From: a bacterium
GTDB lineage: Bacteria; Patescibacteriota; Saccharimonadia; Saccharimonadales; SZUA-47
Direction of reading: 5' to 3'
Length of the DNA stretch: 64,000 bases
Assembly (NCBI GenBank): GCA_030427365.1
Contig: JAUHWW010000002.1
Span: forward strand, 48-64,047
Part shown: positions 7,519-58,637 of the stretch, one piece after another
Layout: every line of letters begins with the position of its first letter
How positions within the stretch are numbered: position 1 is the first letter of the stretch
Made by a program: the position numbers and the translations under genes
Notes under the pieces: generated by a model
Database searches by the model: none
What the model was told of the DNA's origin: nothing
What the model saw: only the letters and a program-made list of their open reading frames with translations

Positions 7519-8399
7519 AAAGTCTAAAAAACCCACTCGAATCGATCACTCCAAAAAAAATCGCTGATGGCTCATTGCGTATTCTCAGAGATCACACGCC
7601 AGTAGTTCTGACTGTTTTGGCGGCAGGATTGATCGGCTTTGCCCTTTACAGCGTTAGTACACTCACGAGCGATACTTCACAGCAAGTATCACAAGCAGAG
7701 AACGGCACGTTCGAACAGCCAATCACAGGTCTCAACATAGATGAGGATTTAAAGCGGTCCTTAGAATCGTTGAGTGAAGACAGCGACGTTGTTATCTCTA
7801 GTAACATTGCGAGCTACCGTCGAAGCGCGTTCAGTAACGTCACTGCAGAGAGTGACTGGGTACTTAGCGCCGCTCGAGCACTCGAAGATTATTTCGACCA
7901 AAACGAGGCCTACCCTAGAGAAGATCAAATCGTGAGTGTGCTGCGTGATGCCGTCGTGAATCCAGAAGATGCAGGAGGTCGGCTCGTGAACACTGAAGCC
8001 AGTGTATATAGATACCAGCCATCGATTTGCAACGAAACAGGCTGTCAATCATTTAGCCTGAGCGAGAATCTCGGATCGTCAACCTACCAACTTGGAGAAC
8101 GTGACATCGTGAGGCGAACCTGGGTTAACGACACAGCAGAAGCGCTTGCGGCCTATCAAGCTGCAAGTGGTAGCGGCGTGTACCCAACAGAGAAGGAATT
8201 TGTCAGTGACATGAAGGCTTTCTACGAAGCGACGTTTGATCAGCCATTCGAGCCGAATGATCCTCGCGGCAATGAAGTAAATAACGATAACAGCACTTAT
8301 AGTTACATCGGAGTGAACTGCACGTTGAGCGGGTGTCAGAACTTTGTATTGCGCACAACGTTCAATGATGGCGCCCTCTACTTCCAGCAAAGTAACTAG
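7515..8399 (+). CDS. membrane-anchored protein with two tandem pilin-like globular domains (last gene of the pilus operon)
   Basis: 294 aa with one TM (VVLTVLAAGLIGFALYSV). Two internal repeats each carry A.AL..Y......YP ... Y.Y ... C...GCQ.F.L, the same pattern as the pilin C-terminal domain. ATGA overlap with pilO. Confidence 0.5.
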   Translation: MKSLKNPLESITPKKIADGSLRILRDHTPVVLTVLAAGLIGFALYSVSTLTSDTSQQVSQAENGTFEQPITGLNIDEDLKRSLESLSEDSDVVISSNIASYRRSAFSNVTAESDWVLSAARALEDYFDQNEAYPREDQIVSVLRDAVVNPEDAGGRLVNTEASVYRYQPSICNETGCQSFSLSENLGSSTYQLGERDIVRRTWVNDTAEALAAYQAASGSGVYPTEKEFVSDMKAFYEATFDQPFEPNDPRGNEVNNDNSTYSYIGVNCTLSGCQNFVLRTTFNDGALYFQQSN

Positions 8400-8401
8400 T
8401 T

Positions 8402-9046
8402 TTATCGAGAATTAATGAGGTGCTCGCTTGGGCTGTCTTTCGCTGAGTGATTGAGTACTTCACGGCCGAATGGCTGAACGGTCTTGCGCTTTTCATGTAC
8501 GGCGTTCTTTTTCATCTGACCGAGTAATTTTTCACGACCATCAAGAATAATCTTGGCGTAATACCCAGGGCGAGGACAGTAGGTAAAGCGGAAATTAGCT
8601 TGCTCACCAGCTGTCTCGATTGTTAGAACACCGAATCCAAACATCGTTGCCAAAAAACCATCCTCAGTCGCCGTCACGTCCTCAACGCTGTAGAGATTGA
8701 GCTGTGACGTTTTGCGAGTAAATAAGCCGCTCTGGAGCACTTGGGTGATGTTGCGATCAGTAATAATCAGGCGATTCTGCTTGTAGATGAATGTACCTGC
8801 AAAGATAACAATTAATGCAAAAATAAATACCAAACCGCCGAATATACTTGCCAGAAGAAATGCCTGGTCGAGATCGCCGACGAGTGCCGGTAGTAAAAAG
8901 AACGGCAACACGGCTGCAATCGTCATGCCAACAATAACCTGCGCGTACAGCGCCACAAGCCCAAAACCATGCTTCTGCACTTCGCTGAGCTTTACTTCGT
9001 CGGCATCTACGGCTGACATTATGTTGTTTTTTGTACGATGAACCAT
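8402..9046 (-). CDS. bacterial PH-domain (YdbT/bPH_2-like) membrane protein
   Basis: 214 aa. Two TM helices followed by NRLIITDRNITQV...GVLTIETAG, typical of bPH_2. Confidence 0.6.
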   Translation of the reverse strand: MVHRTKNNIMSAVDADEVKLSEVQKHGFGLVALYAQVIVGMTIAAVLPFFLLPALVGDLDQAFLLASIFGGLVFIFALIVIFAGTFIYKQNRLIITDRNITQVLQSGLFTRKTSQLNLYSVEDVTATEDGFLATMFGFGVLTIETAGEQANFRFTYCPRPGYYAKIILDGREKLLGQMKKNAVHEKRKTVQPFGREVLNHSAKDSPSEHLINSR

Positions 9047-12401: not shown

Positions 12402-12430
12402 TTGCAGTCAAATAGTAGCGATGCTATAGT
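12402..12430 (+). promoter_or_regulatory. candidate promoter for the YggT-like gene
   Basis: TTGCAG (12402-12407), 17 nt, TGcTATAGT extended -10 (12425-12430), then AGGAGG at 12441 and ATG at 12453. Confidence 0.45.
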
Positions 12431-12452
12431 GAAACGAAACAGGAGGCGTTCT

Positions 12453-12875
12453 ATGGCACAGAAAAAAGATCAGGTAGAAGTACCGAGTTACTTAAAAATA
12501 TCAAAGGTAGTAGTGTGGTTTCTCTACTTCTTTATCTTGCTTGGAATAATATCGCTTATTTTTAGAGTTTTCTTGCTCTTATTCAGCGCGGATCGAAGTG
12601 CAGGGTTTTCTCAATTCGTTGGCAATGTATCTAATGATTATTTGCAGCCGTTTCGAGGTATTTTCCCACCAAAAACAATTGGTGAAACGGGTTATTTGGA
12701 TGTAGCGGCATTGTTTGCAATTCTCGTGTATCTATTCCTACTTTGGGGCGTCCACTCTCTTATTGAGTATGTCCAAGGGAAAATCGATATCGAAAAAGCC
12801 GAACAGCAAAAGCAGCTTGCAGCTGCACAGCGTCGCACCACTACCTCGACGGTGAAGCGTCAGAGCACTAGGTAA
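12453..12875 (+). CDS. YggT-like small membrane protein
   Basis: MAQKKDQ start behind AGGAGG (the track ORF starts earlier, at 12402). Two TM segments and an LQPFRGIFPP motif resembling YggT. Confidence 0.5.
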   Translation: MAQKKDQVEVPSYLKISKVVVWFLYFFILLGIISLIFRVFLLLFSADRSAGFSQFVGNVSNDYLQPFRGIFPPKTIGETGYLDVAALFAILVYLFLLWGVHSLIEYVQGKIDIEKAEQQKQLAAAQRRTTTSTVKRQSTR

Positions 12876-12878
12876 TTT

Positions 12879-12951
12879 AGGGCCCACCGGGGGAGTGACC
12901 TAAATAATCTGCGCGCCGAGCAGGACTCGGGCGACAGACTATTTAGCGAAC
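12879..12951 (-). repeat. tRNA-Lys 3'-end duplicate (14 nt) fused to palindromic module Z
   Basis: 12879-12892 is identical to 13024-13037 (the tRNA-Lys acceptor/T-stem 3' strand). 12893-12951 is the reverse complement of 56344-56396, with the same 12-nt inverted termini CTAAATAGTCTG/CAGATTATTTAG. Confidence 0.75.
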
Positions 12952-13020
12952 CGCGGCCCGTGTTCAAAATCTCAAGTGAGATTCTCCAAAATAAAAACTC
13001 CCAAACGGGAGCTCTCATTT

Positions 13021-13096
13021 TGGAGGGCCCACCGGGGCTCGAACCCGGGACACACGGCTTAAAAGGCCGTTGCTCTACCAACTGAGCTATAGGCCC
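13021..13096 (-). tRNA. tRNA-Lys (anticodon UUU), CCA encoded
   Basis: Hand-folded cloverleaf: GGGCCTA/TGGGCCC acceptor, GCTC/GAGC D stem, ACGGC-CTTTTAA-GCCGT anticodon arm, CCGGG-TTCGAGC-CCCGG T arm. 76 nt. Confidence 0.95.
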
Positions 13097-13157
13097 ATTT
13101 TGCTATGCAAAATGGTCGATTTACAGAGGTTAATTTTATCCTTTAACAGAGATAAAG

Positions 13158-13637
13158 TCAATGCTTTGACTTTTTATGTGGTTTCTTGCTCGATAGCATC
13201 ACGGCGACCAAACTAAGTGCAAAGGTAAGTGCGAGAATCAGCATGCTGAAACCGTCAATAAACCGCCGCATATCATCGTCGACCGTATCAAGTAGCCAAG
13301 ATAGACCTGTCGCCTCCGGGAGCAACAGCGTAATGACGAGGGCAATAAGCAGCGCAATCAATATATGCAGCATCACAAAGCTGCCCTTTATCGTGTGCCG
13401 AAACAGCATAACGGCCAGTGCAATCGGCAAGGCTACCACTGCAAGTCGGACGTAGCCTTCGCCTTCTGACGGCAACAAAGAGCCGGCTGTTGTCAGCACA
13501 ACAGGATCAACTGTTGACAACAGCAGCAATGAGGCACACGTAGCAAAGAAGATCATGCCGGCGTTTGTGCGAAAGTAATACACAACAAAGGCTAGCAACA
13601 ACGATAAGGCGCCGAGCACAATAAAAAATACGCTCAT
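13158..13637 (-). CDS. hypothetical polytopic membrane protein
   Basis: 159 aa with 4-5 hydrophobic helices. No recognisable motif. Confidence 0.55.
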   Translation of the reverse strand: MSVFFIVLGALSLLLAFVVYYFRTNAGMIFFATCASLLLLSTVDPVVLTTAGSLLPSEGEGYVRLAVVALPIALAVMLFRHTIKGSFVMLHILIALLIALVITLLLPEATGLSWLLDTVDDDMRRFIDGFSMLILALTFALSLVAVMLSSKKPHKKSKH

Positions 13638-39306: not shown

Positions 39307-39330
39307 AGAATGCAATTAATCGTTACAATG

Positions 39331-39354
39331 AAAAAAGACCCACAGATGTGAGTC
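39331..39354. terminator. bidirectional intrinsic terminator between the phosphatase gene and the tRNA
   Basis: GACCCACA-GA-TGTGAGTC stem flanked by an A-run and a T-run. Confidence 0.65.
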
Positions 39355-39362
39355 ATTTTTCT

Positions 39363-39439
39363 TGGTAGCAGGAGCCAGGATTGAACTGGCGACCTCAGGC
39401 TTATGAGTCCTGCGCTCTAACCGACTGAGCTATCCTGCC
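39363..39439 (-). tRNA. tRNA-CAU, elongator type (probably Met), CCA encoded
   Basis: 77-nt cloverleaf: GGCAGGA/TCCTGCT acceptor, GCTC/GAGC D stem, CTCATAA loop, GCCAG-TTCAATC-CTGGC T arm. Confidence 0.92.
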
Positions 39440-52860: not shown

Positions 52861-52935
52861 CGCGGGGTGGAGCAGCGGCAGCTCGCGTGGCTCATAACCA
52901 CGAGGTCGCAGGTTCGAGTCCTGCCCCCGCTACCA
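52861..52935 (+). tRNA. tRNA-CAU, initiator-like (fMet), CCA encoded
   Basis: 75-nt cloverleaf. C1 is unpaired with position 72, and A11:U24 sits in the D stem (GAGC/GCTC); both are initiator hallmarks. CTCATAA loop, GCAGG-TTCGAGT-CCTGC T arm. Confidence 0.92.
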
Positions 52936-52948
52936 AGTGAAACTTTGG

Positions 52949-52971
52949 AACCATCCTCCGGGATGGTTTTT
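52949..52971 (+). terminator. intrinsic terminator after the tRNA-fMet
   Basis: AACCATCC-TCCG-GGATGGTT followed by TTTTTAAG. Confidence 0.7.
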
Positions 52972-52999
52972 AAGTTTCGCTTAGTTTCGGCGAGCAGTG

Positions 53000-53088
53000 C
53001 TCGAGCCAAAAAGGTTCGCACAACAGTCACAGCCCCCAGCGATAGCGGGCGGCTGGATTGGAGTGGTCACTCTTCCTGCCCCCGCTAC
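53000..53088 (+). repeat. repeat unit A: module Y plus an exact 15-nt copy of the tRNA-fMet 3' end
   Basis: 53000-53019 is identical to 54493-54512 (CTCGAGCCAAAAAGGTTCGC). 53074-53088 is identical to 52919-52933 (TCCTGCCCCCGCTAC). Followed by its own hairpin plus T6 at 53099-53122. Confidence 0.8.
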
Positions 53089-53255
53089 TACGACAAGAGT
53101 CCATCGCAAGATGGGCTTTTTTCGTGTTACTGAGACAGGCTCCAGCTAGCGACCTCGCGAGGTCGGAGGTGAGAAATGCCAGCGGCATTTCGGAAACGAA
53201 TCTTCTCTTGCAAACTTGTTTGCAAAGATGAAGTTCGGGGGTCGCCGAAGGTGAC

Positions 53256-53267
53256 CGAGTCCTGCCC
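53256..53267 (+). repeat. second partial copy of the tRNA-fMet T-arm
   Basis: CGAGTCCTGCCC is identical to 52915-52926. Preceded by a variable-loop-like GAAGGTGAC. Confidence 0.55.
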
Positions 53268-53333
53268 TTCTTCTTGAAGCTTATCTCGCTACTGCTTGTG
53301 AACTGATAAGGATAATGAGAACATACATCCATT

Positions 53334-54362
53334 ATGCAAATGATTGAGTTAAATCCCGAAGTTTCTATTTCACGATTGGGCTTGGGGACGTACCACTTAA
53401 CCGACCGATTGTCTGAGATTGATGCGATTGAAGCATTGCGTGCTGCAGAACACGCAGGAATTACATTAATCGATACTTCTAACAACTACCGTAGTGAAGC
53501 AGTTATTGGGCTCGCGCTGCGAGATGGCGTTTTACACGAAGCCGACACGTTTATCGCGACAAAAGCAGGATTGGCAATTACATGGCCGCAGCATCAAAAG
53601 CTGCGTACACAAGGCAGGACTGCTGACAGCACTCCTGAATACTTACGCTCTAGTGTCGATGGGAGCATTAGTGTACTTGGAGTGAAAGCGCTTGACCTGT
53701 TCCAACTACATGACATCGACGAAACGGTGACTCCTCTCTCGATAGCTTCGACAATGACTGAGCTGGTTGAAAGTGGCAAGGTGCGCCAGTGGGGTGTGAC
53801 GAACTATAGTAAAGAAGCAGTTGATGATCTGCTATCTGCTTGTGACAAGTACGATGCAGTTCGGCCTGCAACGGCGCAACTGCCCCTTGATTTGGTTACT
53901 GGTGTTACGGACGCTGTGCAGATAGCACGCGATGAGGGCATGATTGTACTCGGCAGATCACCGCTTGGGTATGGACTTTTTACGGATTCTGGTATCGATC
54001 AAGCCAGAGACATAATCGAGCAGGCTGATCCAGAAAAGAACATCAAAGACGCACTTTTGATCACATTAGATAAATTAGACGAAATAAGAGACCAAGCACA
54101 CAGCGTCGGAGTTGCTTTTGAAGAACTAGCTCTTGCGTGGGTAATGAGCCACGACCGTACAGCTGTGCTAAACAGCTGCTACTTGCCAGAGTATTTACAG
54201 CGTAGCGTCAGAGCAGAAAGATGGGATGCTCCCCAGGCATTATTTGATACTGCCAATGAACTCCATGAAAATCCATTGTATAGAGAAATGGGCAATCGTC
54301 TTATACGCGTGATGCACAGTACCAGACCGCAGCTGAATCGCTCAGCCCACCCACCGCAGTAA
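53334..54362 (+). CDS. aldo/keto reductase
   Basis: 342 aa. LGLGTY...GITLIDTSNNY...ATK... AKR pattern. Confidence 0.88.
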   Translation: MQMIELNPEVSISRLGLGTYHLTDRLSEIDAIEALRAAEHAGITLIDTSNNYRSEAVIGLALRDGVLHEADTFIATKAGLAITWPQHQKLRTQGRTADSTPEYLRSSVDGSISVLGVKALDLFQLHDIDETVTPLSIASTMTELVESGKVRQWGVTNYSKEAVDDLLSACDKYDAVRPATAQLPLDLVTGVTDAVQIARDEGMIVLGRSPLGYGLFTDSGIDQARDIIEQADPEKNIKDALLITLDKLDEIRDQAHSVGVAFEELALAWVMSHDRTAVLNSCYLPEYLQRSVRAERWDAPQALFDTANELHENPLYREMGNRLIRVMHSTRPQLNRSAHPPQ

Positions 54363-54387
54363 TAATTATTGCGTAGTCTTGCACAAA

Positions 54388-54476
54388 ATAGCACCTATAG
54401 AAGGCAGTCTTATGTATCCCCCAGGGCGAACCCGCTACCAAGAAAACAGACTCAGCAACCTGCTGGGTCTTTTTTC
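54388..54476 (+). pseudogene. degenerate tRNA-CAU-like pseudogene plus a copied terminator (paralog of the 39.3 kb tRNA locus)
   Basis: ATAGCACCTATAGAAGGCAGTCTTATGTA... aligns to the D and anticodon arms of the tRNA at 39363-39439. GCTACCAAGAAAACAGACTCAGCAACCTGCTGGGTCTTTTTT parallels that tRNA's 3' end and terminator (GCTACCAAGAAAAATGACTCACATCTGTGGGTCTTTTTT). Confidence 0.65.
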
Positions 54477-54492
54477 TTTGTCGGAGACTAGA

Positions 54493-54682
54493 CTCGAGCC
54501 AAAAAGGTTCGCTATTCCCCCCGCAAAGCGTTGCTTTACGGACGGGCGGATTACATTCATAGCTCCTGCCACGGTCTTACTTGAAACATGTTTCAAATCA
54601 GCCGTCGCCACATCTCAACTCGGCCAGGGCCGGGTTTCCGATCTTGCAGAATTTCACTGAACTTCCTCACCCCGCTACCAAG
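54493..54682 (+). repeat. repeat unit B: module Y, a perfect 16-bp palindrome, and a tRNA-fMet 3'-end copy
   Basis: 54493-54512 equals 53000-53019. TTGAAACATGTTTCAA lies at 54581-54596. 54663-54682 matches tRNA 52918-52937 at 17 of 20 positions, including CCAAG. Confidence 0.75.
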
Positions 54683-54718
54683 CATAAGCATTTTGAAATC
54701 CGTAAACTGGTGTCATTT

Positions 54719-55516
54719 TTATTGAAGAAATTGATTTGTTGCTTCGGCTACCCAAGCGTATTTATCGGCAACAAAATCAAGAGGCTGGCCGTCACGATAT
54801 AGCTGCTTGTCAACCATCTGATTTGAATCACCGCCTGGCCATATACGCCACGAATCATTATCGATTACATCCGCTACTACAAATCCATTGGGTGTTCTAC
54901 CGCATTCGATTTTCATATCGACCAAAGTTACGTCCTGCTCTGCCCAGGCGGCTTCAATAACTTCAAATGTGGCTACAGAAAGATCGCGTAATTGACTAAT
55001 TTCGTGGTCACGTAGGCCAAACGGAGACTGAACGATATTTTGTTGATCGATAAGTGATGGTTCGTCTATTGGCTGTTTTGGATGGTAACGAAAAACCATG
55101 TCGCAGGAGTAATCTAGATACGGGTCATGATTTTCGTCATCTTTAGCGAACATTTCGAATAAAGGTGGTTCAAATCTGGCTCCTTCTGCCACGCCAGGGT
55201 TTCGTTTTAGGTACGATCCGTATGCTAATCTTCTAGTCACTAATTCAATTGGCACCATGTCTACTCTCAGCGCACGAAACACAACATCGCTTCCAGCTAG
55301 TCGACCTTGATAGTGCGTAGGGATTCCATTTCTTTCCAGTAGTTCAAAGCAGTTAGATGTTGTTTGTGTTGCAAGAGCTGCCTTGCCCTCGATTTGATCA
55401 CGTCTAGCCCCATCACCTGCTGTTATATCATCCTTGCTCTCTATTAGTACCGTTGGTTCTTCTGCATATATTCTTTTTGTTTTGCCTTCAGCAATTACCT
55501 CGCCGGATACTATCAT
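54719..55516 (-). CDS. purC: SAICAR synthetase PurC
   Basis: 265 aa. GKTKRIY N-terminal motif and SAICAR_synt-like layout. Confidence 0.88.
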   Translation of the reverse strand: MIVSGEVIAEGKTKRIYAEEPTVLIESKDDITAGDGARRDQIEGKAALATQTTSNCFELLERNGIPTHYQGRLAGSDVVFRALRVDMVPIELVTRRLAYGSYLKRNPGVAEGARFEPPLFEMFAKDDENHDPYLDYSCDMVFRYHPKQPIDEPSLIDQQNIVQSPFGLRDHEISQLRDLSVATFEVIEAAWAEQDVTLVDMKIECGRTPNGFVVADVIDNDSWRIWPGGDSNQMVDKQLYRDGQPLDFVADKYAWVAEATNQFLQ

Positions 55517-55615
55517 ACTAACTTCCCCATTACATAAATCTAGGATATGCTAGTTATACAAAACAAACAAGTTAAGCAAACTAGTATCAAATGCCTAATC
55601 CTAATGGGAGACACA

Positions 55616-56155
55616 ATGACTAAACAAGCCGAACAAGAGCCAATTGTAGGAGTAATTATGGGTTCTGACTCAGACTTGAAAACCATGAAGCCAGCCTCAG
55701 ATATATTGCACCTGTTTGGTGTGCCGCACGAAGTAAGAGTGAAATCTGCGCATAGAACGCCCGAGATGATGGCAGAATATGGTAGAACTGCATTAGATAG
55801 AGGAATAAAAGTAATAATAGCAGGAGCAGGCGGATCTGCTCACCTGCCTGGCATGGTAGCTTCTGAGACTAGGCTTCCGGTGCTTGGTGTAGCTATCGAA
55901 AGTTCTGCGGATGTTACAAATGCCGCCCTAGGCTCAATGATAAGAATGCCAAAGGGCATTCCACTCGCTACAATGGGCAAAGGTGAAGCGGCTGCGGCAA
56001 ATGCAGGATTAGAGGCAGTTAGAATATTAGCCTTAAGTGACGATCAGTTAGGACAAGCATACGAGAATTACGTCGAGAGGATGGCCGCAGAAGTCATGGC
56101 GAAGGATCAAAGGCTAGTAGAGTTAGGCGTAGATACATACTTGCAGCAAATGTAG
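55616..56155 (+). CDS. purE: AIR carboxylase / N5-CAIR mutase PurE
   Basis: VGVIMGSDSDL, SAHRTP, AGGSAHLPGMVAS motifs. Start at MTKQAEQ behind GGAGA. Confidence 0.93.
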   Translation: MTKQAEQEPIVGVIMGSDSDLKTMKPASDILHLFGVPHEVRVKSAHRTPEMMAEYGRTALDRGIKVIIAGAGGSAHLPGMVASETRLPVLGVAIESSADVTNAALGSMIRMPKGIPLATMGKGEAAAANAGLEAVRILALSDDQLGQAYENYVERMAAEVMAKDQRLVELGVDTYLQQM

Positions 56156-56206
56156 TTCCACTCCCAGCTGCTAGTCCAAGTCATATCTTTTGCAATCCCT
56201 AGAATA

Positions 56207-56301
56207 GCTTTCCATCTGTTAAGCTATTTTGCAGATTAGGTTCCAATCCGATTTCAAACGCGCTACCAAGAATAAAAGCTCAGGATTTATCCTGGGCTTT
56301 T
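56207..56301 (+). repeat. tRNA-pseudogene-like direct repeat C1 with copied terminator
   Basis: 56207-56267 aligns with 58140-58198 at about 48 of 61 columns by hand. A D-arm-like GCTT...AAGC and a T-arm-like GGTTCCAATCC end in CGCTACCAAG. The terminator GCTCAGG-ATTTAT-CCTGGGC-TTTT is homologous to those at 39331-39354 and 54448-54476. Confidence 0.7.
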
Positions 56302-56343
56302 GTTCTTGATGACCGAAGGTCGTGACTCGTACCTTCGCGCAGT

Positions 56344-56429
56344 GTTCGCTAAATAGTCTGTTGCCCGATTCGGCGCACAGATTATTTAGGACACTCGTCC
56401 TCCCACACTTCCAAGCATAAGCTATTTGA
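56344..56429 (+). repeat. palindromic module Z followed by a tRNA 3'-end/trailer-like fragment C2
   Basis: 56344-56396 matches the reverse complement of 12893-12951. 56398-56429 (TCCTCCCACACTTCCAAGCATAAGCTATTTGA) is homologous to 54664-54697. Confidence 0.7.
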
Positions 56430-56493
56430 CCATATAAGCATCTTGATGATGTAGCATCTCATTCAAAAGGGTTGGTGCGGTATACTATTCTTG

Positions 56494-57945
56494 ATGAGCT
56501 ATGACCACAAAGAATTGACTGCCCTAGTCGATGAGCTTAGAAATCTAGGCTCAGAACAAGAGTGGATTGAGTTCAAGAAAGATAATTTCCAGCCAGATGT
56601 AATCGGGCAAGCCATTTCAGCCCTTTCGAACGCTGCAGCATTACACGGTAAGGACAAGGCTTACCTAGTTTATGGCATAAAAGATGACACTCACGAAGTG
56701 ATAGGCACTATATTTGACCTCGCGAAGGAACGCGTTGGAGCCGAGGAGCTTGAAAACTGGCTAAATAAGATGCTCGACCCCAAGATAAACTTTATTTGTC
56801 ATGAGTTTGAGTACGTACCGGGAACTAAAGTTGTAGTGATAGAGATAGATGCCGCCTCATCTTACCCAGTCAGCTTCAAGAAAGCATGTTACATTCGTGT
56901 TGGTAGCTACACGAAACCAATCTCAGCCCACCGTGGAAAAGAAAAAGCACTCTGGAGCAAGCTTGAAAAGAAAACTTTTGAGCTCGAGCTGGCAAAAACA
57001 AACCTCAGCAATGACGAGGTGCTTACACTACTAGATTACAATGAGGCCTTCAAAAAGCTCGGCATTCGCCTGCCAGATGACAAGTCTAGCATTATAGAAA
57101 AACTCATTGAAAATGAACTCGTAACTAAGTCCAAAGGTCGGCTAGCCATTACAAACCTGGGGGCGGTGCTGTTTGCAGTCGATCTGACAAAGTTTGATGG
57201 TTTAGCAAGACGTGCAGTACGTGTAGTCAAGTACGATGGTAAGGACAAGCTCGAGACCGAGCGAGAGTTTCGTGGCAAAAAAGGCTATGCGTTAGGTGTT
57301 GACAATATTGTCAGCCTTATAGCTACAATAACCCCGGCAGAGGAGGTTATGGAAGGTGCTTCACTAATAAAAAAGTTTGCATACCCTCAACGTGCAGTAC
57401 GTGAGCTAGTCGCCAACGCATTAATCCACCAAGACTTTAGCATTGGTGGTGCTGGCCCAATGATAGAAATCTTTGACAACCGAGTTGAAATATCAAACCC
57501 AGGTACGCCACTAGTTGATGTACAAAGAATCATTGACCATAGCCCGAGGAGTAGAAATGAAAAGCTTGCTGGCACAATGGCCAGAATGGGTATTTGTGAA
57601 GAACGTGGCAGTGGTGTAGATAAGGTTGTTATTGAGTGTGAGATGAGCCAGTTACCGGCTCCCGAATTCATCGTTGAAGATGATTTTACACGTACGAAAC
57701 TATTCGCTTATAGAACACTTAGAGACATGACGAGGGAAGATAAAATACGAGCTACCTACTATCATGCTGTAATTAAATACATTACTGATGGTTATATGGA
57801 AAACAATACACTCCGGGAACGTTTCGGTATTGCCAAGGAAAACTATCCCACTGCTTCCAACATTATCAGACTAGCTTTAGACGCAGGTGCCATTAAGACA
57901 CGTGACTCAGATACCGCGACAAAGTACGTGCCGTTTTGGGCGTAA
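56494..57945 (+). CDS. Schlafen/AlbA_2 domain plus HATPase_c_4 plus wHTH protein (COG2865-like)
   Basis: About 483 aa. N-terminal AlbA_2-like EWIEFKKD...YLVYGI. Central RELVANALIHQDF...IEIFDNRVEISNPG. C-terminal HTH-like region. The track ORF starts at TTG 56491. TATACT at 56481-56486 lies 7 nt before the ATG, so the mRNA may be leaderless. Confidence 0.85.
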   Translation: MSYDHKELTALVDELRNLGSEQEWIEFKKDNFQPDVIGQAISALSNAAALHGKDKAYLVYGIKDDTHEVIGTIFDLAKERVGAEELENWLNKMLDPKINFICHEFEYVPGTKVVVIEIDAASSYPVSFKKACYIRVGSYTKPISAHRGKEKALWSKLEKKTFELELAKTNLSNDEVLTLLDYNEAFKKLGIRLPDDKSSIIEKLIENELVTKSKGRLAITNLGAVLFAVDLTKFDGLARRAVRVVKYDGKDKLETEREFRGKKGYALGVDNIVSLIATITPAEEVMEGASLIKKFAYPQRAVRELVANALIHQDFSIGGAGPMIEIFDNRVEISNPGTPLVDVQRIIDHSPRSRNEKLAGTMARMGICEERGSGVDKVVIECEMSQLPAPEFIVEDDFTRTKLFAYRTLRDMTREDKIRATYYHAVIKYITDGYMENNTLRERFGIAKENYPTASNIIRLALDAGAIKTRDSDTATKYVPFWA

Positions 57946-57948
57946 TCC

Positions 57949-58034
57949 ACATGTAATCGAGCATCGGTATTTCGTACAACAACAATTTTTCACCCCTGTA
58001 AAAAATACTTATACACATGTAATCAACATGTAAT
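57949..58034 (+). repeat. three direct copies of ACATGTAAT
   Basis: Copies at 57949-57958, 58015-58024 and 58026-58034, just downstream of the AlbA_2 gene. Confidence 0.6.
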
Positions 58035-58056
58035 TGGAAGAGGATGGGGTTGCTGA

Positions 58057-58136
58057 GACTGGGAGCCTTTACTGAGAGAGCCGGCAGTTCTAGACCCAGC
58101 TGCCTGTCTCTGTTAACTGGGGTACTGCTCCCAGTC
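58057..58136. other. about 80-nt imperfect long hairpin
   Basis: Outer perfect 10-bp stem GACTGGGAGC/GCTCCCAGTC. Inner AGAGA/TCTCT and GGCAG/CTGCC stems. Confidence 0.55.
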
Positions 58137-58139
58137 ACT

Positions 58140-58198
58140 GCTTCCACCTGTTAAGCTCTTTTGCAGATGAGTTGTAGTTCGATTTTAGACGCGCTACC
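58140..58198 (+). repeat. tRNA-pseudogene-like direct repeat D1 (partner of C1)
   Basis: GCTTCCACCTGTTAAGCTCTTTTGCAGATGAGTTGTAGTTCGATTTTAGACGCGCTACC. Its last bases overlap the ftsB-like stop codon. Confidence 0.7.
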
Positions 58199-58637
58199 CG
58201 CCGAAAAAGAAGTTCATCCAAGCTTCAAAGTTGCGCTGGTAGGCTGGTTTCGTAGACTCAGGCTCAATGGTTTCGCTATCGAGCGGCGTTTTAAGCGCGG
58301 CAAGAGCTGTTTCTTCAGTAATGGTATAGACACGCTCACCTTCGGCAGCAACGCCGTTCACGCGGCGCGCCTTCAGCTCTGCAAATTCCGGCGTTTTATA
58401 GTACTCAATTTCCAGCTCTCGGTTGCGGTTCTGCAGCTCGAGAACGCGGTTTTCTTCTTCTAAAATTGCAATCTTCTCAGTCAGCTCGTAGTTCTGCTGC
58501 ACCACTTTCGCACCGTTGTAAACAACCGCTAATCCAATCAGCCCAAGTAGCAACACGCCAAGCAAGCGGGGGTCGTCTAAGCCCTTTTCGGCCAGCTTAT
58601 TGCGAATGATTTCTATTTTTGTGCGGATAAGATCCAT
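58194..58637 (-). CDS. septum formation initiator (FtsB/DivIC-like)
   Basis: 147 aa. One TM followed by a leucine-zipper-like coiled coil (LTEKIAILEEENRVLELQNRNRELE). Confidence 0.75.
   Translation of the reverse strand: MDLIRTKIEIIRNKLAEKGLDDPRLLGVLLLGLIGLAVVYNGAKVVQQNYELTEKIAILEEENRVLELQNRNRELEIEYYKTPEFAELKARRVNGVAAEGERVYTITEETALAALKTPLDSETIEPESTKPAYQRNFEAWMNFFFGG

Follow-up and report, generated by a model that had tools for sequence, protein, structure and literature searches.

A small protein-less unit behind a tRNA-Lys gene of Saccharibacteria and its relatives at other tRNA genes

The DNA analysed here (the window; 64,000 nucleotides) is a chromosomal stretch of a member of the Saccharibacteria (TM7), with a G+C content of ~47% and genes including ruvABC, yebC, dnaJ, recA, and those of a type IV pilus. 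On its minus strand lies an intact gene for tRNA-Lys(UUU), followed by a non-coding stretch (12879-13020) which ends with a second copy of part of the tRNA 3′ end. On balance, this stretch is best explained as an insertion unit associated with the 3′ part of tRNA-Lys, one that is small, encodes no protein, and is non-autonomous. Units of the same family, with the same layout, are found at other tRNA genes; they are present at some and absent from other orthologous sites, they occur stacked, the structure of one of their modules (M) is conserved, and no protein gene is linked to them. The parts of the tRNA-Lys locus, in their order along the tRNA strand, are as follows (L-numbers label the loci of relatives and of metagenomes that were compared with the window):

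13021-13096, minus strand: intact tRNA-Lys(UUU) gene with encoded CCA (ARAGORN and Rfam tRNA, 70.6 bits)
12984-13025, minus strand: terminator hairpin with 19-nucleotide (nt) arms, 84% complementary, the CCA end of the tRNA lying within its lower stem
12968-12983, minus strand: hairpin A (AATCTCA CT TGAGATT), with the same hairpin behind tRNA-Lys in L123
12957-12967, minus strand: antisense stub TTGAACACGGG, reverse complement of the T-stem 5′ strand and T-loop of the tRNA
12946-12956, minus strand: sense stub CCGCGGTTCGC, the 5′ strand of the T-stem followed by TTCG from the T-loop, containing the family-invariant GTTCGC
12901-12945, minus strand: type-1 module, the 45-nt hairpin B, which splits the T-loop of the partial tRNA copy (inverted-repeat call and folding)
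12893-12900, minus strand: GGTCACTC box between hairpin B and the copy of the tRNA 3′ strand, recurring at 53065-53072
12879-12892, minus strand: exact 14-nt tRNA copy CCCCGGTGGGCCCT, equal to 13024-13037, not followed by CCA

Within the tRNA gene, CCCCGGTGGGCCCT (13024-13037) comprises the last base of the T-loop, the 3′ strands of the T-stem and the acceptor stem, and the discriminator base. An initial annotation of the locus had described this duplication as exact, which it is, and the observed match count was reached by none of 100 dinucleotide shuffles, well beyond chance. No difference in the entire unit, duplicate included, was seen among one ENA assembly and three Logan assemblies built from different runs; with four independent, identical assemblies, it is not an assembly artefact. 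The description of an intact tRNA followed by two hairpins and a palindromic module of ~50 nt also stands, the hairpins being the terminator and hairpin A, and the module the 45-nt hairpin B. The stretch preceding the module had been likened to the variable loop and T-arm of the tRNA. On closer reading, TTGAACACGGG repeats the T-stem 5′ strand and T-loop in antisense, a feature that had been overlooked; it matches TCGAACCCGGG at 9 of 11 positions, which was equalled by 7 of 1,000 shuffles. A sense copy, CCGCGGTTCG, comes next and matches CCCGGGTTCG of the tRNA at 8 of 10 positions (read from the sequence). Past hairpin A, the tRNA strand thus reads TTGAACACGGG-CC-GCGGTTCGC, then the 45-nt hairpin. 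Compared with shuffled sequence, the region has a much stronger predicted fold (z = −8.5 when the tRNA is included; z = −4.0 for the unit alone, as DNA). Judging from the 14-nt repeat, the lack of a CCA, and its position abutting the yggT-family gene, the Lys copy is probably old and inert, an inactive copy that is drifting.

Other readings of the Lys copy were considered and rejected. That it forms an acceptor/T-arm minihelix (GGGCC pairing with GGCCC), as was also proposed for L007, was dropped after the 5′ strand had been recognized as the antisense T-arm stub that all units possess. A primer-binding site was ruled out, as the complement of CCA was not found beside the copy. A casposon-like target duplication of 14-15 bp was ruled out as well, since terminal inverted repeats are lacking and the repeat length ranges from 14 to 76 nt.

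Type-1 units that are homologous to one another occur four times in the window (nhmmer E 2e-11 to 4e-8), once at tRNA-Lys, twice behind tRNA-fMet, and once at 56.3 kb. Outside the window, type 1 was found behind tRNA-fMet (L135 and L137) and behind tRNA-Arg(UCU) (L035), which brings the total to at least seven cargo-less copies in four genomes. Their layout consists of the tRNA 3′ end, a terminator, an antisense T-arm stub, a sense T-stem/T-loop stub (GTTCGC), a long hairpin, and a tRNA 3′ strand; as a consensus, the family has (G)GTTCGC, a long hairpin whose base is rich in A/T, a further 7-11 nt, and the T-stem 3′ strand of the upstream tRNA. The other type-1 features of the window are:

52936-53088, plus strand: type-1 unit behind tRNA-fMet (tRNA at 52861-52935), with terminator, short hairpin, stubs, 45-nt hairpin, and tRNA 3′ copy
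52994-53004, plus strand: antisense stub of this unit
53013-53019, plus strand: its GGTTCGC
53065-53072, plus strand: its GGTCACTC box
53074-53088, plus strand: its 15-nt tRNA 3′ copy
54444-54575, plus strand: decayed type-1 unit, with the 20-mer CTCGAGCCAAAAAGGTTCGC in common with 53000-53019
56273-56420, plus strand: type-1 unit between a pseudo-tRNA 3′ end and the 3′ strand of a different tRNA (..CACACTTCCA), the closest paralogue of the Lys module

That the architecture at tRNA-Lys is the same as that at tRNA-fMet, as had been proposed, is borne out by the span from GGTTCGC over 45 nt to GGTCAC, which has an equal length of 58 nt at 12895-12952 (minus strand) and 53013-53070 (plus strand); two matches to this pattern were found in none of 100 shuffles. 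The antisense stub of the fMet unit matches at 9 of 11 positions, which was equalled by 25 of 1,000 shuffles. A BLAST comparison of the Lys unit with the window aligned 59 nt of its module with the copy at 56344-56396 at 83% identity; this copy has a deletion at the tip of the hairpin. For the type-1 hairpin, the fold derived from only four sequences predicts seven apical pairs, four of them with double changes. The outer stems vary among copies (TAAATAGTCTG/CAGATTATTTA versus TAATTCCCCG/CGGGCGAATTA), in different registers and among few sequences.

The second module, M, is an 87-nt element of three hairpins. It was first met in L005, where it splits the T-loop of a partial tRNA-Lys copy and starts with TGAGAAATGCC. 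The one copy in the window is intact (53170-53256, plus strand; 94.7 bits, E = 3.7e-23) and splits the T-loop of a partial tRNA-fMet copy:

53158-53268, plus strand: M unit behind tRNA-fMet, with sense stub CGAGGTCGGAGG, M at 53170-53256, then CGAGTCCTGCCC (T-loop 3′ part and T-stem 3′ strand)

A scan of metagenomes for 20 specified bases of the insert yielded 119 loci, most of them with full M and a few of them chance matches. Placement in the Saccharibacteria applies to the window and to loci with shared yebC or HSP20 synteny; the other M loci belong to metagenomic lineages, and a protein search started from L043 gave no close relative with a name. The covariance model of M gave 115 matches at E ≤ 0.001 in 100 of the loci, several of which carry 2-4 copies, and M adjoins more than 15 tRNA types. 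Compensatory changes were observed at 20 of the 33 predicted pairs, a strand-specific G.U pair is kept in 52 of 59 sequences, and stem P1 covaries in L015, too. At the orthologous fMet site (window, L116, and L068), the M copies differ through compensatory changes. M is a real structured element, and its covariation, which the initial annotation had missed, indicates that units of this class are more than DNA in decay. A structure supported by covariation in distant relatives had been named beforehand as an observation that would speak against a scar or element; such a structure was found for M and, among the few type-1 sequences compared, not for the Lys hairpin. No Rfam 15 family matched M or the Lys unit even at E ≤ 10, only tRNAs and noise being returned, and no description of these units was found in the literature, the closest being group I introns in tRNA anticodon loops of Patescibacteria (PMC13011429). 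Type 1 was also considered as a diverged form of M, but the M covariance model gave no match on any type-1 unit, even at E ≤ 10. Viral contigs, scanned once for type 1 and once for M, contained no matches.

Two further kinds of insert were noted. A longer subtype of M (CAAGGCCGGA..., with an extra hairpin) is present in L020, L056, L117, L119, L126, and L129, where it is flanked by non-tRNA repeats such as CCTCCAGAGGG or GGGCACCGCTT. A third type of module, with a GCAGAAGyTTrCTTCGAG-like motif, occupies the same split-T-loop slot in trailing copies of tRNA-Asp, tRNA-Phe, and tRNA-Val (L047, L063, L134, and L062).

Across the loci, M lies on the strand of the nearest tRNA in 96 of 104 cases, at a stereotyped distance. 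In the common, downstream form, the tRNA is followed by a terminator, an antisense T-arm copy, a sense copy of the variable loop and the T-stem 5′ strand, M, and the T55-CCA part of the tRNA, which is usually an exact repeat of 21-22 nt. The mirror form lies upstream; here, a copy of the 5′ part of the tRNA, carrying M in its D-loop, variable loop, or T-loop, is followed by a short sense and antisense stub and the intact gene. Both stubs are tailored to each tRNA, and the antisense stub was statistically supported in 33 of 50 M units. Among 117 tRNAs surveyed in the fetched, M-biased set of loci, 46 carry a trailing 3′ copy of at least 11 nt; 33 of these copies are split by M, and the 13 without M are all split, too, by type 1 or the type-3 module. 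An unbroken T-loop was seen in none of the 46. The earlier wording of a T-loop-like context interrupted by a palindromic module is therefore accurate and describes a general rule across units. Whole units are predicted to fold as multi-helix junctions closed by the antisense stub. The possibility that M is an intron was rejected, as its removal yields a predicted tRNA in only 2 of 123 cases. The Lys unit has only stubs 5′ of its module. In two loci the exact repeats extend beyond the tRNA: in L123 (1138-1397, minus strand) over 76 nt including the terminator and hairpin A, and in L124 (1238-1500, minus strand) over about 60 nt, made up of 15 nt of upstream flank and tRNA positions 1-46. These two units were probably formed recently and are the best material for studying the mechanism.

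The tRNA-Lys/yebC loci of relatives were retrieved through yebC homologues, a comparison that the initial annotation had proposed. Next to yebC, tRNA-Lys is followed by type 1 in the window and by intact M, not anticipated in this slot, in L123, L005, L036, and L038 (yebC 57-91% identical to that of the window). Remnants were found in L012, L009, and L007, L014 has the antisense stub only, and the site is empty in L013. As the window and L123 have both hairpin A and the antisense stub, they share an orthologous backbone with different modules. Likewise, the elongator tRNA-Met beside a His_Phos_1 gene is accompanied by an M unit in L137 and by none in the window (tRNA-Met at 39363). The order of stacked units also differs: behind tRNA-fMet, type 1 is followed by M in the window, M by type 1 in L137, and there is only M in L136 and only type 1 in L135. 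In L111, two tandem M units lie downstream of tRNA-Pro and one upstream. In L073 and L137, M is reversed inside tRNA fragments, and in all 30 cases, antisense insertions included, the left flank of M as read on its own strand ends with ..RGG; the reversed copies together with this flank point to insertion at the DNA level. In L137, a reverse M (8358-8444, plus strand) interrupts an older type-1 unit (8441-8502, minus strand) within its acceptor 3′ strand (CCTGGCC / antisense M / CCCGCTACCA), which indicates that M moves independently of unit formation.

No gene that could account for this movement was seen next to the units. When open reading frames (ORFs) located up to 3 kb from M were clustered across the 119 loci, neither a recombinase nor any other conserved gene emerged (the best cluster was present in 9 of 119), no recombinase domain was found in the 28 window ORFs scanned against Pfam or in the called genes of the relatives' loci, and no transposase-encoding autonomous partner was seen in the fetched loci. 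Behind both tRNA-Lys and tRNA-fMet, every relative examined has a hotspot of gene content; at tRNA-Lys, the variable cargo lies outside the repeat-bounded unit. Behind tRNA-fMet, the window contains a 5.3-kb patchwork (52936-58200) in which units and pseudo-tRNA 3′ ends alternate with cargo genes (aldo/keto reductase, purC, purE, and Schlafen/AlbA_2), and unrelated genes occupy the same interval in L135, L136, and L137. The pseudo-tRNA 3′ ends are located at:

54425-54443, 54668-54682, 56200-56272, 56401-56420, and 58140-58199: pseudo-tRNA 3′ ends behind tRNA-fMet

Short, protein-less, hairpin-rich, multi-copy elements oriented at a short flank motif are familiar from bacteria, as miniature inverted-repeat transposable elements (MITEs), IS200/IS605-type palindrome-associated transposable elements (PATEs), and repetitive extragenic palindromic sequences (REP/REPIN). 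Like these, M and type 1 are short, non-coding, hairpin-rich, and present in multiple copies at unrelated sites, and M has an oriented ..RGG flank, a strand-specific structure with a G.T/G.U pair, and a presence/absence pattern at orthologous sites. Unlike in these systems, no TnpA, TnpB, or RAYT gene was seen for M or type 1. MITEs and PATEs also differ in that the copies described here lie almost only inside tRNA-derived sequence (the exceptions being the longer M subtype and a few chance matches) and that their insertion comes with a partial tRNA duplication and an antisense stub.

Fragments of tRNA genes left by tRNA-integrating elements are documented (PMC9897764), cis-mobilizable elements (CIMEs) and tandem accretion have been reviewed (PMC5704250), and tandem ssrA repeats have been described (PMC3146451). 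With attachment-site (att) remnants of islands and CIMEs, the units share the intact tRNA, the downstream repeat of its 3′ part, stacking with the newest unit nearest to the tRNA, and the hotspot of foreign genes (PMC9897764, PMC5704250, PMC3146451). They differ from them in having no integrase close by, in their size of ~130-190 nt, in being tailored to more than 15 tRNAs, and in their antisense T-arm stub, T-loop-splitting module, and 5′-side mirror form. Group I introns occur in tRNA anticodon loops of Patescibacteria, and T-loop introns of transfer-messenger RNA (tmRNA) are mentioned (PMC13011429); these resemble M in being structured, RNA-like elements at a defined loop position in the same phylum. 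M, however, has only 87 nt, matches no intron in Rfam, and resides in truncated copies with the intact gene alongside. Similar to tRNA-like small RNAs (YrlA, Y-RNA-like), the units combine T-arm/acceptor sequence with extra helices, but unlike tRNA mimics they have neither a D-arm nor an acceptor 5′ strand, and their T-loop is disrupted. A YrlA match beside tRNA-fMet is below threshold (21.4 bits versus a gathering score of 69) and overlaps the real tRNA.

A small non-autonomous unit of this class, rather than the worn-down end of a large island, fits the Lys stretch best. The initial annotation had put forward both a fully decayed scar and a small non-autonomous element that targets tRNA 3′ ends; the cargo-less family, tandem stacking, and empty or differently filled sites argue for the latter. 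If so, a site-directed event in the T-loop region would restore or duplicate the tRNA 3′ end, with the working tRNA gene left intact alongside. Insertion and restoration of the tRNA would then be one coupled event, the work being done in trans by an enzyme or through an RNA or single-strand intermediate. New units would be added beside the tRNA and older ones pushed outward, and the modules (the type-1 hairpin and M) would represent the conserved transposable payload, M behaving like a MITE that lands after ..RGG on its own strand.

Several observations sit uneasily with an insertion unit. The antisense stub is not accounted for by any known integration mechanism. Neither a mobile intermediate, nor an enzyme, nor an empty/filled pair with identical flanks from the same species was found, and all four assemblies of the species are filled. 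At yebC identities of 57-92%, tRNA-Lys still has the unit behind it, and this persistence as well as the compensatory divergence of M would fit a host-selected RNA equally well. The metagenome set was selected by the M motif, so the frequencies drawn from it are biased. The standing of type 1 as an active module is weaker than that of M, because the M model does not match it, only seven copies are known, and its consensus supports the fold at the hairpin tip alone. In addition, a strict type-1 pattern found no true copy among 185,579 representative genomes; its single match, in a coding region of a high-GC metagenome-assembled genome with no tRNA close by, is due to chance.

A more far-reaching reading is put forward tentatively. 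The units could be a new kind of tRNA-templated element, in which a structured module (M, type 1, or type 3) is written, together with an antisense, guide-like stub, into a partial tRNA copy, possibly through an RNA or single-strand intermediate. They might spread selfishly, or they might be tRNA-specific small RNAs kept by bacteria of the candidate phyla radiation (CPR), and M, instead of being the end of a transposon, might be a new class of RNA that acts as a ribozyme or as a scaffold for recruiting proteins.

The main rival is a structured non-coding RNA selected by the host, that is, a tRNA-derived small RNA gene in which the stubs and the 3′ strand form helices presenting the module and the partial tRNA is a functional scaffold. 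It is not fully exclusive with an insertion unit, and as an account of the Lys stretch we regard it as rather unlikely. The cognate tRNA could be the target or the partner of such an RNA, which might serve, for instance, as a T-arm/acceptor mimic or decoy, or as a processing or termination element, a role that is similarly doubtful. The covariation of M is of the RNA type, with a strand-specific G.U pair, and its compensatory differences among the orthologous fMet-site copies would be expected of such an RNA; so would the tRNA-Lys unit being kept at the yebC identities given above, the multi-helix folds of whole units closed by the antisense stub, the folding of the Lys region far beyond that of shuffles, and the fact that M shares the strand of the nearest tRNA. 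On the other hand, orthologous sites are empty (L013, and the tRNA-Met at 39363 of the window), hold remnants, or carry a different module, M has inserted antisense inside tRNA fragments, and units are stacked redundantly. The Lys copy itself keeps only 14 nt and has neither a CCA nor a terminator of its own, which also speaks against such an RNA.

An ordinary scar of a recombinase-borne island, left when an element inserted by a tyrosine integrase into the T-loop/3′ end of tRNA-Lys (attL/attR) later lost almost all of its interior, with the hairpin and GTTCGC as leftovers of the attP arms as in CIMEs, is considered improbable. A direct repeat reaching from the T-loop/T-stem to the discriminator or CCA is the classic signature of integration into a tRNA gene, and a 14-nt repeat of this kind beside an intact tRNA was indeed found; hotspots behind tRNA-Lys and tRNA-fMet in all relatives examined, and pseudo-tRNA ends bracketing cargo genes at 52.9-58.2 kb of the window, are also what islands would leave behind. 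However, no integrase was detected in the window ORFs tested, beside the 119 M loci, or in the relatives' loci, and the variable cargo at tRNA-Lys lies outside the repeat-bounded unit. Cargo-less units of ~130-190 nt occur at more than 15 tRNA types, and independent deletions would not give the same small size at all of them. Neither a contiguous attR core nor an uninterrupted T-loop among the 46 trailing copies was found, and the stubs are tailored to each tRNA. Finally, a coincidental 14-mer with hairpins in GC-rich intergenic DNA, or a repeat made during assembly, might come to mind for so short and GC-rich a repeat (14 nt) in a contig assembled from a metagenome, but is refuted by the shuffles, the four identical assemblies, and the homologous units at other tRNAs and in other genomes.

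If the insertion-unit reading holds, small elements linked to tRNA genes form a layer that standard annotation overlooks in the tiny genomes of Saccharibacteria and of other metagenomic lineages; among them is the structurally conserved, 87-nt M, which is absent from Rfam 15. The units would explain many of the "tRNA fragments" in these genomes and would mark the sites at which foreign genes accumulate (the tRNA-Lys and tRNA-fMet intervals). Two notions would become testable, namely that protein-poor symbionts acquire genes without obvious integrases, and that small structured nucleic acids target tRNA genes while leaving them functional. The M covariance model would improve the annotation of tRNAs and pseudo-tRNAs in CPR genomes.

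The remaining features around the tRNA-Lys gene are:

13133-13161, minus strand: promoter-like site upstream of tRNA-Lys, TTGACT / 17-nt spacer / TAAAAT (10 of 12 consensus matches; predicted from the consensus alone)
12453-12875, plus strand: yggT-family gene, a convergent neighbor outside the Lys unit, its stop codon 3 nt from the 14-nt copy

The interval between a conserved gene for a 159-aa membrane protein and yebC (12402-13160 in the window) differs in gene content among the relatives L005, L007, L012, L014, and L015. Genes met there are yggT, fasciclin with a GDSL lipase, adh_short with abhydrolase, a 119-aa ORF, and DUF1801 with DUF4287; in L005, L007, and L014 the tRNA-Lys gene has the opposite orientation, and L015 lacks it in this interval. 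The tRNA gene at 52861-52935 (plus strand), read from its sequence, is an initiator-type tRNA-Met with C1 opposite U72 and without the usual three G-C pairs in the anticodon stem. Hairpins that reach into the encoded CCA were observed behind several tRNAs, at 12984-13025, 52933-52975, and 39325-39369 of the window and in L005, L012, L013, and L014, an example being CTCCAAAATGAGAGCTCCC / GGGAGTTTTTATTTTGGAG. The one behind tRNA-Lys (12984-13025) is terminator-like in both strand directions; A and T runs flank such CCA-including terminators on both sides, which gives them their bidirectional appearance.

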